A stretch of 64,000 bases of DNA, from sequence record OQ411014.1; one strand, 5' to 3'. The notes under the pieces are model-generated. The model ran no database searches, had not been told where the DNA came from, and saw only the letters and a list, made by a program, of their open reading frames with translations. Each line of letters opens with the position of its first letter. Positions within the stretch are counted from its first letter, which is position 1. The translations under genes and the position numbers were made by a program. Of this stretch, positions 35,175 through 37,800 are shown piece after piece. Source of the DNA: Escherichia phage EJP2.

Positions 35175-37800
35175 CTTATTTGATGATGATGATTTTCAGG
35201 GTGAAGATTATTCTCGTACGAAAAAACCTGGGGTAAAGATCGACTATACCCCAGAAATGATAGAAGAGTTACGTAAATGTAAAGAAGACCCAATTTACTT
35301 CATGGAGAACTATTTCTATATTGTAAGTAAAGGTGGTGAAATACTTTTCAAACCTTATGAGTACCAAAAGCAGATGGTTCGAAACTTCCAGAATTATACG
35401 AACAACGTAATGCTAACTGCTCGTCAGATGGGGAAAAAATTAGTAAACAGTACACCAATATTAACTCCCCACGGATTCACAACGATGGGTGAATTGAAAG
35501 TGGGTGATGTGATTTATGGAGCCGATGGTAAGAAAACTACAGTTAATTACATAACTGATCCTAACGACCAATTGAAACTATATGATATAAAATTTAGTAA
35601 TGGTGAAACAATCACTGCATGTGAGGATCATCTATGGAACATCAGTACCACTGATTGGCATCGTTATGGTAATAAGGTAAAAACCCTTAGTACTAAAGAA
35701 ATGGTCCACTTACTAAACAAACTAAGTTCACGTACTAAACCTTCCCGTATGTTCATTGAGCATACAAAGGTGGTAGAATTTGACGAACAGCATGTTCATA
35801 TTGATCCATATATTCTTGGTCTATGGTTGGGAGATGGTCATTCTGCTAACCACAGAATAACTCACCATGTGGATGATTATACATTTTATAAAGAATGCTT
35901 GAACGAAAATATTAGCGAGTTCAAACTTGATAACAGAACCGAATGTACAGGTTACAGTAACTTAAATTTCGAGCATCATTATTCTCTTAAAAATAATAAA
36001 CACATACCGCATGAATATATATACAATAGTGTTCATGTACGTACTGAGATCCTAAAAGGATTGATGGACACTGATGGTTATTGTAGTATAGACGGTAATA
36101 CCCAGCAGTTTTATAGTTCAAACAAACATTTAGCTGAGGCAGTACGACTCATATTATCAACTCTTGGTATTAAGAGCACAATTACGTTTAAAGATAATGA
36201 CCACAAAGGATGTTATGTAGTTACCTTCAGTACTAGTGTTGAGGTATTCAAACTACCAAGAAAGTTGGAACGTCAGAAGAGTCGCCAATGTGATCATCCA
36301 AAAAATCACCGCTTGTATATTGAAAGTATTACTGAATCAACAAGTACTGAAATGGGGCGTTGCTTACAGGTTGATAACGAAGACCACCTATTTTTATGTG
36401 GAGAAACATTGATACCCACACATAACACAACCGTTGCAGCAGCCTTTATACTATGGTATGCTATGTTCAATGATACTAAGACTATCCTACTTCTTGGTAA
36501 CATTTTAAGTACTGCAAAAGAAATCATGGAACGTATTCAGTTCGCATATGAAATGTGTCCTGACTTTATCCGTGATGGTGTTGTAAAATATAACGTACAA
36601 ACTGTACACTTCGAAAATAAATCACGTATCATTGCACGTGCGACTACTCCGTCCGCTGCTCGTGGTCTATCTGTAAACTTACTATACCTTGATGAATTTG
36701 CATTCGTACAAGAATCTTACCAGTCTGAATTCTGGTCAGCAGTATCACCAACACTTGCATCTTCAGATGGTAGATGTATAATCACTAGTACGCCGAACAC
36801 CGAATACGACCAGTTCGCTACTATATGGTATGAATCACAATCTCACGTTATGGAAGACGGTACTCAATTGGATGAAGGTGGTCCAGGTAAAAACGACTTC
36901 AAAGGGATACAGGTTACATGGGATTGGCATCCAGATAGAGATATCGAATGGGCTAAGAAAGAAGAATACAAAATTGGTACATCTAAGTTTAAGCGTGAAT
37001 ATAACTGCGAATTCGTAACGTACCAAGAAACACTAATCAACAGTGTTAAGTTAACTGAAATTAAATCCAGAACAGTACGGGAACATATCAGACAAACTGA
37101 TGATGTACGATGGTTTAAACCTATTGAGTACGGAATGACGTACTGTGTTGCACTTGACCCTGCTGGTGGTACTGGTGGTGATGATGCAGCTATACAAGTT
37201 TATGAACTCCCCACAATGCGACACGTTGCAGAATGGAGACATAACATGTTCCGAATACCTGAACAGATTAAACTCTTGCATAGGATTCTATCCGAACTGG
37301 CTTATCAAATGCATAAGTTAGGTGCAAAAAATATCGAAGAACACTTGTACTGGTCAATTGAAAGTAATACAATCGGTGAAGCAGCAGTACTGGAGATTCA
37401 GCACATAGGTATTGATGCATTCCCTGGAACATTAATTAATGAACCAAGACGTACTCGTACTGGTAAAATCCGTAAAGGTATGGTAACGACACGTAGTACT
37501 AAAAAGACTGCTTGCTTCCATATGCAAAAGCTAATGGAGACATTCAGGATGGAAGTTGCAAGTAAAGCACTACATAGACAGTTGAACGATTTCATACGTT
37601 CTGGTACTGAAGATGGTGTCTTTAAAGCAAAACTAGGTATGAAAGATGACTTAGTATCTGCGGCGTTGTTAATTGTGAGAATGTTTGATATCATTGCGAA
37701 ATTCGAAGACAACACTGCTGAAGTAATGCGTGAAACCTTAGAGGAACACGATGAAACATACTTCATGCCGTTGGGATATCTAATGTCTTACAACAGATAA
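35164..37800 (+). CDS. Terminase large subunit (T4 gp17-like) interrupted by an intein
   Basis: N-extein ARQMGK(K) P-loop; C-extein [14 protein letters not shown]...LYLDEFAFV aligns with T4 gp17 GKTTVVAIFLAHF...IYIDECAFIP; 878 aa because of a roughly 330 aa insertion. Confidence 0.9.
35437..36426 (+). mobile_element. Intein with LAGLIDADG homing endonuclease domain, inserted in the terminase Walker A motif
   Basis: Hint block A-like [25 protein letters not shown]; two LAGLIDADG motifs ([20 protein letters not shown]); C-terminal [18 protein letters not shown] followed by Thr +1. N-terminal boundary uncertain by a few codons. Confidence 0.75.

Follow-up and report, generated by a model that had tools for sequence, protein, structure and literature searches.

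The gene for the large terminase subunit (TerL) of Escherichia phage EJP2 (OQ411014.1) carries an insert within its Walker A motif that has the hallmarks of an intein and that begins with Lys. This raises the question of how such an intein would take the first step of splicing. A preliminary description of this DNA left two alternatives, in that either the N-terminal boundary lies a few residues further downstream or the intein uses an atypical first step. The analysis presented here covers the whole stretch of 64,000 nt, referred to below as the window. With a probability of about 0.9, the insert is a class 3 intein with an intact LAGLIDADG endonuclease, situated between the Walker A Lys and Thr (GK/TT, the slash marking the junction) in the TerL of a RaK2-like jumbo phage.

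Boundaries of the intein in TerL

The precursor gene and its three parts are arranged as follows:

35164..37800, + strand: TerL (T4 gp17-like) precursor gene, 878 aa, 101.7 kDa, identified from the open reading frame (ORF) list, Pfam Terminase_6N and PDB 3EZK/3CPE (E 1e-30)
35164..35436, + strand: N-extein, aa 1-91, ending in the Walker A residues ARQMGK, placed by alignment with T4 gp17 SRQLGK and with intein-free orthologues
35437..36426, + strand: intein, aa 92-421, 330 aa, 38.1 kDa, a predicted class 3 splicing domain interrupted by a homing endonuclease domain of the LAGLIDADG type
36427..37800, + strand: C-extein, aa 422-878 (TTVAAAF...), and stop codon, placed by the T4 gp17 alignment of aa 421-849

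All 878 aa are encoded in one uninterrupted frame, and Pfam Terminase_6N is matched at aa 422-626 (E 4e-9). The T4 gp17 structures 3EZK and 3CPE align with separate segments of the protein, aa 19-94 and aa 421-849, that join at T4 SRQLGK/TTVVAIF, in line with the Walker A match first proposed for the flanks. The C-extein comprises the remainder of the ATPase domain and the nuclease domain. An antisense ORF at 36306-36527 (73 aa) lies inside this conserved coding region and was taken as spurious, and no tRNA genes were found in the whole window.

The comparison with intein-free terminases of related phages that the preliminary description had proposed places the boundary at GK/TT. Against the TerL proteins of Erwinia phage Hallingskeid (547 aa; 90% identical to the EJP2 TerL over the whole protein) and E. 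coli phage 121Q (545 aa), there is a single gap-free boundary, ...TARQMGK/TTVAAAF..., and the gap corresponds exactly to aa 92-421, or nt 35437-36426, the very coordinates first assigned to the insert. The intein-free site in Hallingskeid reads CGTCAGATGGGTAAGACAACGGTGGCAGCG, while the joined exteins of EJP2 read ARQMGKTTVAAAF, matching SRQLGKTTVVAIF of T4 gp17. The junctions are thus K91/K92 and N421/T422, the N-terminal one being set at K/K because the intein-free orthologues fix GK directly before TT. Residue -1 is the Walker A Lys91 (codon 35434-35436), and Lys occupies this position in 113/113 homologues among the matches listed. Intein residue 1 is Lys92 (AAA, 35437-35439), and in a residue-by-residue alignment it falls on Ala1 of the class 3 intein MchDnaB1, where the Ala follows SVGK. 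At the other end, the intein closes with His-Asn (36421-36426), followed by Thr422. Judged from these alignments, the Lys at the start of the intein, as originally read, is no boundary error.

Splicing blocks and class assignment

The splicing blocks are located as follows, with residues numbered from the start of the intein except for Thr422, which is numbered in the precursor:

35437..35475, + strand: block A; residue 1 is Lys, which offers no nucleophile for an N-S/N-O acyl shift, in the same register as MchDnaB1 Ala1
35620..35637, + strand: block B core CEDHLW, with Cys62 at B:7 (35620-35622), His65 at B:10 (35629-35631) and Trp67 at B:12 (35635-35637)
36358..36396, + strand: block F, with Cys309 at F:4 (36361-36363), the predicted first nucleophile and the C of the Trp-Cys-Thr (WCT) triplet
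36418..36429, + strand: end of block G, T-H-N/T, with Thr328 at G:5 (the T of WCT), His329, the cyclising Asn330 and Thr422, the +1 nucleophile (36427-36429)

Blocks A, B, F and G, the C-terminal Asn, Thr at +1 and a Hint fold are all found, which identifies the insert as an intein. Moreover, the features initially picked out, namely Hint block A, two LAGLIDADG motifs and a C-terminal HN followed by Thr, all reappear in the alignments and Pfam matches.

Class 3 inteins are defined by a non-nucleophilic residue 1 together with the WCT triplet at B:12, F:4 and G:5 (Tori et al., 2010, PMC2807308; Kelley et al., 2016), and their pathway starts with nucleophilic attack by the block F cysteine (Tori et al., 2010). 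The EJP2 intein has each of these sequence features, along with Thr at +1. Trp67 lies two residues past His65 and supplies the W of the triplet, while Cys309 falls in the same alignment column as Cys124 of 6RIX and Cys118 of 6BS8 (RCVEVDN). Conservation was assessed in 52 aligned homologues and among the matches listed, which are the best 120 of 301 homologues with E <= 1e-5 and range from E 1e-140 to 1e-31. In the aligned set, the block B His and Trp are invariant (52/52), as are the block F Cys and the block G Thr and Asn (52/52 each); the block G His is present in 51/52, and +1 is T in 31 and S in 21. Among the matches listed, the triplet scarcely varies (W 117/117, C 117/119, T 118/119), with the Asn in 117/119 and T, S and C at +1 in 41, 64 and 9. 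Columns L2, T6 and G13 of block A are conserved. Residue 1, on the other hand, varies: it is A in 41 and G in 5 of the 52, the others being K, M, D and so on, and A in 99 and G in 8 of 113 homologues among the matches listed, with one each of K, M, D, E, C and S. Two features of the EJP2 intein are therefore in the minority, Lys1 (1/113 homologues among the matches listed) and Cys at B:7 (6/52), a column that is Asp in 42/52. Class 3 splicing has been suggested to benefit from an Asp in block B, so its replacement by Cys means that splicing efficiency could differ.

Among solved structures, the nearest relatives by phmmer are the class 3 DnaB inteins MchDnaB1 (6RIX/6RIY) and MsmDnaBi1 (6BS8), with E values from 3.6e-16 to 2.3e-14; similarity of this order, like that to the database homologues, greatly exceeds chance. 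Their blocks align gap-free with the EJP2 intein, for example RCVEVDNPAHLYLAGRGMVPTHN, and both inteins follow a P-loop GK; they differ in being bacterial DnaB mini-inteins that start with Ala and have lost the endonuclease, and B:7 is Asp in MsmDnaBi1. Mutation C118A in MsmDnaBi1 established that the block F Cys is needed for splicing and for N-terminal cleavage. An AF2 model of the EJP2 intein (pLDDT 94.1) was matched by Foldseek to the splicing domain of 6BS8 (TMt about 0.8), while the best whole-chain matches were PI-SceI (the yeast VMA1 intein), TliVMA and PI-PfuI (E 6e-17, TMq 0.68). These three share the two-domain layout and very similar LAGLIDADG motifs, but they are class 1 inteins with Cys1 as first nucleophile and usually Asp at F:4, and they occupy other hosts and sites. 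Two domain models gave sub-threshold matches: NCBIfam intein_Nterm scored 16.8 bits against a cut-off of 24.5, and Pfam PT-HINT also fell below threshold. The weak intein_Nterm score is no argument against an intein, because standard N-terminal models expect Cys1.

The closest characterised parallel is the DnaB intein of mycobacteriophage Bethlehem (MP-Be), the class 3 prototype, for which the branched thioester route through block F was demonstrated (Tori et al., 2010). The two inteins share a non-nucleophilic residue 1, WCT at B:12/F:4/G:5, identical numbering of His65 (B:10) and Trp67, a Cys-to-Thr spacing of 19 residues, Thr+1, a C-terminal His-Asn, a site in an ATPase P-loop, a LAGLIDADG endonuclease and a phage host. 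They differ at residue 1 (Pro in MP-Be, Lys in EJP2), at B:7 (Ser versus Cys) and in the host protein (DnaB versus TerL), and splicing is experimental for MP-Be whereas it is predicted for EJP2. Still closer in sequence are the TerL inteins of RaK2, K64-1, Muenster, fENko-Kae01, JNE01, UE-S1 and ph0011, which occupy the same GK/TT site in orthologous terminases, are 54-69% identical to the EJP2 intein and have in common the blocks ITACEDHLW and RCLQVDN...IPTHN. Their residue 1 is A in fENko-Kae01, RaK2, JNE01 and UE-S1, L in K64-1 and apparently Ser in ph0011. It is M in P0001 and K in P0019, the latter in a divergent TerL, and the inteins starting with A, L, M or K show no indel in block A. 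Hint and LAGLIDADG domains had already been noted in the RaK2 and K64-1 TerL proteins by Buttimer et al. (2017), in a passage that names no splicing class.

Predicted splicing pathway and competing readings

By analogy with the experimentally established class 3 pathway, we infer four splicing steps. Cys309, its thiol activated by His65 with Thr328 and placed by Trp67, would attack the Lys91-Lys92 bond, leaving the N-extein on Cys309 as a branched thioester. Transesterification would then hand the N-extein to the side chain of Thr422 (+1), and cyclisation of Asn330 would free the 38-kDa intein. Finally, an O-to-N acyl shift would create a native Lys91-Thr422 bond, yielding a TerL of 548 aa and 63.6 kDa in which the predicted Walker A is normal (ARQMGKTT). 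Residue 1 has no nucleophile role in such a pathway, which would explain the Lys of EJP2 and the Ala, Gly, Leu, Met, Asp or Glu found in relatives. Thus, of the two original alternatives, the atypical first step stands by virtue of the class 3 signature, although it amounts to an already characterised pathway and no new chemistry, and the downstream boundary falls with the K/K junction fixed by the orthologues.

That downstream boundary would lie at Ser96 or Thr97 (intein positions 5 and 6), making a class 1 intein that leaves KLVN or KLVNS in the P-loop. Ser and Thr are indeed present in KLVNST, and Thr6 is found in 51/52 homologues, but inteins generally have a conserved Thr at position 6 of block A, where its role is structural and it does not serve as a splice-junction nucleophile. 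Leftover residues would disrupt GKT, the Walker A core, whereas intein-free orthologues have GK immediately before TT. The gap-free block A, which sets Lys92 on MchDnaB1 Ala1, argues against such a shift as well, as does the Cys at F:4, a position usually held by Asp in class 1 inteins (Tori et al., 2010). With Lys at position 1, there is no Cys or Ser there to perform the initial acyl shift of class 1, and this reading is extremely unlikely. In a class 2 (KlbA-like) intein, no block F intermediate forms and the N-terminal scissile bond comes under direct attack by the +1 residue. Such an intein would account for the missing nucleophile at residue 1, as in KlbA inteins. By definition, however, class 2 inteins lack the WCT triplet (Tori et al., 2010), and W, C and T are all present in EJP2 and invariant across the family. 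The nearest solved relatives are class 3 inteins, and the studied KlbA intein has Cys+1 where that of EJP2 has Thr+1, all of which makes class 2 very unlikely.

A decayed or non-splicing intein, with the insert remaining in the protein or the terminase being non-functional, could be suspected in light of the two minority residues, Lys1 and B:7 Cys, and because the metagenome-derived sequence was assembled from reads (Logan SRR20950768) and need not represent a viable phage. Against this, the 878-aa frame is open, all catalytic residues of the splicing and endonuclease domains are intact, and a 38-kDa insert within GK/T is expected to stop ATP binding by an essential protein. In addition, the cultured, viable phages fENko-Kae01, RaK2, K64-1, JNE01 and UE-S1 have orthologous inteins at the same site, and decay is accordingly quite improbable. 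The LC-MS/MS detections flagged in the fENko-Kae01 record do not include the TerL of that phage. It is also conceivable, though unlikely, that the RaK2-like TerL inteins form a class 3 sub-type with altered N-terminal junction chemistry or regulation, an idea prompted by two minority residues in an otherwise standard class 3 intein, the bulky or charged residue 1 (Lys, Leu, Met) and the B:7 Cys in place of the usual Asp. Cys62 at B:7 adjoins the catalytic His65 and lies near Cys309. If the sub-type existed, a Cys62-Cys309 disulfide, for instance, might make terminase maturation, and hence DNA packaging, conditional on redox state, a situation akin to the Cys48-Cys118 redox trap of MsmDnaBi1.

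The endonuclease domain and intein mobility

Within the predicted class 3 intein, the endonuclease domain carries two motifs:

35812..35844, + strand: LAGLIDADG motif 1, intein residues 126-136, with catalytic Asp133 (35833-35835; D in 44/52), aligned to the PI-SceI motif region
36052..36084, + strand: LAGLIDADG motif 2, intein residues 206-216, with catalytic Asp213 (36073-36075; D in 45/52), matched by I-DmoI

Pfam LAGLIDADG_3 (PF14528) is matched at TerL aa 294-357 (E 1.7e-10) and Hom_end (PF05204) with E 1e-4. Both D133 and D213 are present, as in a two-motif LAGLIDADG enzyme, in which each of the two helices ends in a catalytic acidic residue within an alpha-beta-beta-alpha-beta-beta-alpha fold, and the fold matches PI-SceI and I-DmoI. 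The 52 homologues were also used to build an HMM, with which the ORFs of 80 aa or more in all six frames of the window were searched; the TerL ORF alone matched, with no second copy of the intein family in the rest of the window.

Close relatives differ in that the intein is found in some and is absent from Hallingskeid and 121Q. Between K64-1 and RaK2, the exteins are 100% identical while the inteins are 78.9% identical. On comparative grounds, this presence and absence, together with the discordance between intein and extein, show mobility in the lineage. The preliminary description had gone further and proposed recent mobile activity, which is only partly supported. A recent arrival in the EJP2 genome does not follow, because the base composition of the intein matches that of the host gene and its nearest relative among the matches listed is only 69% identical. 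The predicted endonuclease presumably cleaves terminase alleles that lack the intein, its target being the conserved codons of the P-loop, after which the intein would be copied in by repair (homing), a process that would explain the patchy distribution in closely related phages. On a side lead, an apparent frame break in the TerL P-loop of related, fEgEco12-type phages, the literature search gave nothing relevant, its one hit being about a Pseudomonas jumbo phage, and IMG/VR held no exact match.

Although the finding holds, it is an ordinary one, in that a Lys start is normal for a well-studied class of inteins. Most class 3 inteins, of which the original set comprises 34, lie in P-loops of helicase-like proteins, phage terminase large subunits among them (Tori et al., 2010); class 3 inteins in terminase P-loops have been known since 2010, and that of EJP2 adds one more. 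For annotation, its value is that the gene can be described as one terminase precursor maturing by predicted protein splicing. The orthologous TerL is labelled a hypothetical protein in the fENko-Kae01 record. The EJP2 intein also offers a natural data point suggesting that class 3 tolerates a basic residue 1 right after the Walker A Lys, plus a Cys at B:7. Its usefulness for intein engineering, where class 3 is of interest in protein ligation with unusual junction residues, is modest. In RaK2-like jumbo phages, the GK/T site of T4-type terminases may be an active homing site at which inteins turn over rapidly.

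Boundaries of the insert in the large terminase

The large terminase (TerL) precursor of the window matches the T4 gp17 crystal-structure sequences (3EZK, 3CPE, 2O0H) in two blocks, query aa 19-94, up to the ...SRQLGK of T4, and aa 421-849, from TTVVAIF on, which indicates that the host protein is a gp17-like large terminase broken inside its Walker A motif. In Pfam, the T4-type terminase N-terminal ATPase domain (PF03237) occupies aa 422-626 of the ORF, and a LAGLIDADG domain (PF14528) falls at aa 294-357, with a weaker match to PF05204. Two TerL proteins lack the insert: that of Erwinia phage Hallingskeid (547 aa), which aligns with its counterpart in the window at 90% identity, and that of E. 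coli phage 121Q (545 aa). Because these intein-free proteins lack exactly aa 92-421, that stretch defines the insert, and the gap coincides to the nucleotide with the coordinates first proposed from the sequence.

35164-37800, + strand: TerL precursor ORF, 878 aa, a single long reading frame
35437-36426, + strand: intein, aa 92-421 (330 aa), from the gap against Hallingskeid and 121Q TerL

Excision leaves ARQMGKTTVAAAF, a normal P-loop, and none of the other cut positions restores the sequence of the intein-free orthologues. Position -1 holds the Walker Lys and position 1 Lys92; the intein finishes with His-Asn, and +1 is Thr422. The preliminary description had offered two ways around the Lys at residue 1, of which the first moves the N-terminal boundary a few residues downstream. 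Such a boundary, at a Ser or Thr, is ruled out by both the orthologue alignment and the block A register. The junction itself (35431-35442) lies in a purine run, GGGGAAAAAATTA, where the codons of the Walker A Lys and of intein Lys1 are both AAA and form an A6 homopolymer at which slippage or a sequencing error could occur. The frame across this run is intact in the window, and Lys1 is found again in an independent homologue (P0019) with an N-extein clearly unlike that of the window, so Lys1 cannot be put down to a single sequencing error.

The genes around TerL are arranged as in RaK2-like jumbo phages of enterobacteria. Upstream is a 5'-3' exonuclease gene; downstream come genes for a structural protein, an SSB-like protein and RecA/UvsX, an order common to fENko-Kae01, Hallingskeid, fEgEco12 and 121Q. 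At the DNA level, phage relatives are distant (best record 81.6% identity, over the C-extein), and a 49.7-kb contig in an assembly of run SRR20950768 encodes an identical TerL protein. The upstream 225-aa ORF (34497-35174), whose 3' end overlaps the start of TerL by 11 nt (35164-35174), may encode the small terminase or else a partner in packaging; fEgEco12 lists its counterpart as 'DNA packaging protein; Gp17', other phages as 'hypothetical protein'. The nearest intein-bearing orthologue, the 872-aa ENKO_304 of Klebsiella phage fENko-Kae01 (L001:2893-5511), comprises TerL and intein, is labelled only 'hypothetical protein' in the public record, and does not figure among the proteins that this record marks as found by LC-MS/MS.

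Class 3 signature and predicted splicing

The nearest solved relatives of the insert are the MchDnaB1 (6RIX, 6RIY; E 3.6e-16) and MsmDnaBi1 (6BS8; E 2.3e-14) inteins, both described as class 3 rather than standard inteins. In class 3, a non-nucleophilic residue 1 covaries with Trp B:12, Cys F:4 and Thr G:5 (the WCT triplet), and +1 is usually Thr or Ser (Tori et al. 2010; Kelley et al. 2016). Most class 3 sites are ATPase P-loops of helicase-like proteins, including 'terminase large subunits of bacteriophage' (Tori et al. 2010; Kelley et al. 2016). The splicing blocks align without gaps, intein positions 5-70 falling on chain positions 5-70, and this register puts Lys1 on Ala1 of MchDnaB1, which directly follows SVGK in that construct. 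The stretch with Cys309 aligns to RCVEVDNPAHLYLAGRGMVPTHN, Cys309 falling on the catalytic Cys124/Cys118. The window intein has His65 (B:10), Trp67 (B:12), Cys309 (F:4), Thr328 (G:5), His329, Asn330 and Thr+1; like the prototype MP-Be DnaB intein (His65, Trp67, Cys320, Thr339; Tori et al. 2010), it has identical His65/Trp67 numbering and a 19-residue Cys-to-Thr spacing. This full residue set, together with the position of Lys1, supports the other early suggestion, an atypical first step. Judged by its sequence, the element is a class 3 intein, and the Lys1 puzzle has a textbook answer. The presence of WCT rules out a class 2 intein, and a decayed intein is unlikely: the reading frame is open, no catalytic residue has been lost, and the element also occurs in cultured relatives.

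The intein with five flanking residues per side was modelled in AlphaFold2 from an alignment of 52 sequences, with high confidence (mean pLDDT 94.1, pTM 0.92). In Foldseek searches of the PDB, the whole chain matched PI-SceI (E 6e-17, TMq 0.68), the TliVMA intein and PI-PfuI, while the splicing domain matched the class 3 DnaB inteins 6BS8, 6RIX and 6RIY (TMt 0.79-0.82) and the endonuclease domain I-DmoI. By analogy with the pathway established experimentally for MP-Be DnaB and MsmDnaBi1 (Tori et al. 2010; Kelley et al. 2016), Cys309 would attack the Lys91-Lys92 bond to give a block F branched thioester, the N-extein would move onto Thr422, Asn330 would cyclise, and an O-to-N shift would finish the ligation. 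The 101.7-kDa precursor is predicted to yield a 63.6-kDa TerL and a 38.1-kDa intein.

At E <= 1e-5 the intein query matched 301 proteins, of which the best 120 were analysed.

Residue counts in BLAST-anchored columns, drawn from the best 120 of 301 homologues
-1: Lys 113/113
Residue 1: Ala 99, Gly 8; Lys, Met, Asp, Glu, Cys, Ser 1 each
B:10: His 116/117
B:12: Trp 117/117
F:4: Cys 117/119
G:5: Thr 118/119
G:7: Asn 117/119
+1: Thr 41, Ser 64, Cys 9

These counts leave residue 1 as the sole junction position free to vary, as would be expected of a residue without a chemical role. At the same TerL site it is Ala in fENko-Kae01, RaK2, JNE01 and UE-S1, Leu in K64-1, Met in homologue P0001 and once more Lys in P0019. 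When 52 of the best 120 are aligned with MAFFT, the invariant columns are -1 Lys, two Gly, His65, Trp67, Cys309, Leu320, Thr328 and Asn330, along with residues of both LAGLIDADG motifs. Block B:7 is Cys62 in the window, a minority state (Asp in 42/52 homologues, Cys in 6/52), and ITACEDHLW is common to all RaK2-like inteins examined.

Mobility, related sites and a frame break

The catalytic Asp is kept in both LAGLIDADG motifs (D133 in LGDG, D213 in DTDG). Related inteins were found by tblastn in 746 phage records; the best matches listed are mostly annotated terminases and come from RaK2-like phages, Krischvirus such as ECD7, Synechococcus phages B3/B23, and Rhodobacter, Gordonia, Mycobacterium and Bacteroides phages. 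Some RaK2-like phages carry the intein while close relatives lack it, and inteins have diverged faster than exteins (54-69% vs 75-77% identity to the window). The TerL exteins of K64-1 and RaK2 (L005 and L006) are 100% identical while their inteins share 78.9% and differ at the first residue (Leu and Ala, respectively), a contrast suggesting that the intein was replaced, or recombined, independently of the host gene. The sequence comparisons thus support homing and intein turnover in the RaK2-like lineage. The claim of recent mobile-element activity is only partly supported: patchy presence and intein/extein discordance show mobility in the lineage, but a recent arrival in this genome is undemonstrated, because intein G+C (35.5%) is similar to that of the exteins (36-39%) and the nearest relative of the intein is only 69% identical.

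Many homologous class 3 inteins (in P0051-P0120, at ~30% identity) have WCT, Ala1, Ser+1 and R[IL]EGK before the intein. Their hosts carry dCTP deaminase/dUTPase-type Pfam domains, which places the family also at an ...EGK|S site of a non-P-loop enzyme family; extein switching may lie behind this.

Outside the window, a single additional C just 5' of the Walker A Gly-Lys codons (CAGATG-C-GGAAAA, vs CAGATGGGTAAA in 121Q) interrupts the TerL frame in a clade of E. coli jumbo phages, at least five of them isolated independently. Its position is exactly the intein insertion site.

fEgEco12, L003:2994-3003: extra-C frame break
WPEC3, vB_Ec-M-J (L013, L014), near 600: extra-C frame break
CMSTMSU, L015, near 600: extra-C frame break
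ph0011, L009, near 1815: extra-C frame break

Annotation splits the broken gene into two overlapping 'terminase large subunit' CDS that both lack an intact GKT, and a +1 skip of the extra C restores ARQM-GKTT. The sequences suggest programmed +1 recoding at the P-loop, from the rare zero-frame CGG codon; a shared error or another bypass is possible instead. A literature search found no relevant paper on this frame break, and IMG/VR held no exact match to it. Escherichia phage ph0011 (L009:1791-1860) combines the frame break and an intein at one site. Read in the +1 frame (GK|SLALDTPILTP), residue 1 is apparently Ser, which would make this a WCT-family intein whose residue 1 could serve as a nucleophile; Tori et al. 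(2010) mention three exceptions of this kind.

Class 3 inteins, their P-loop preference and their presence in phage terminases have been on record since 2010 (Tori et al. 2010), and class 3 inteins have been surveyed repeatedly (e.g. Kelley et al. 2016). Hint and LAGLIDADG domains in RaK2 and K64-1 TerL were already noted by Buttimer et al. (2017). To these, the window adds a class 3 member in which residue 1 is Lys and B:7 is Cys.
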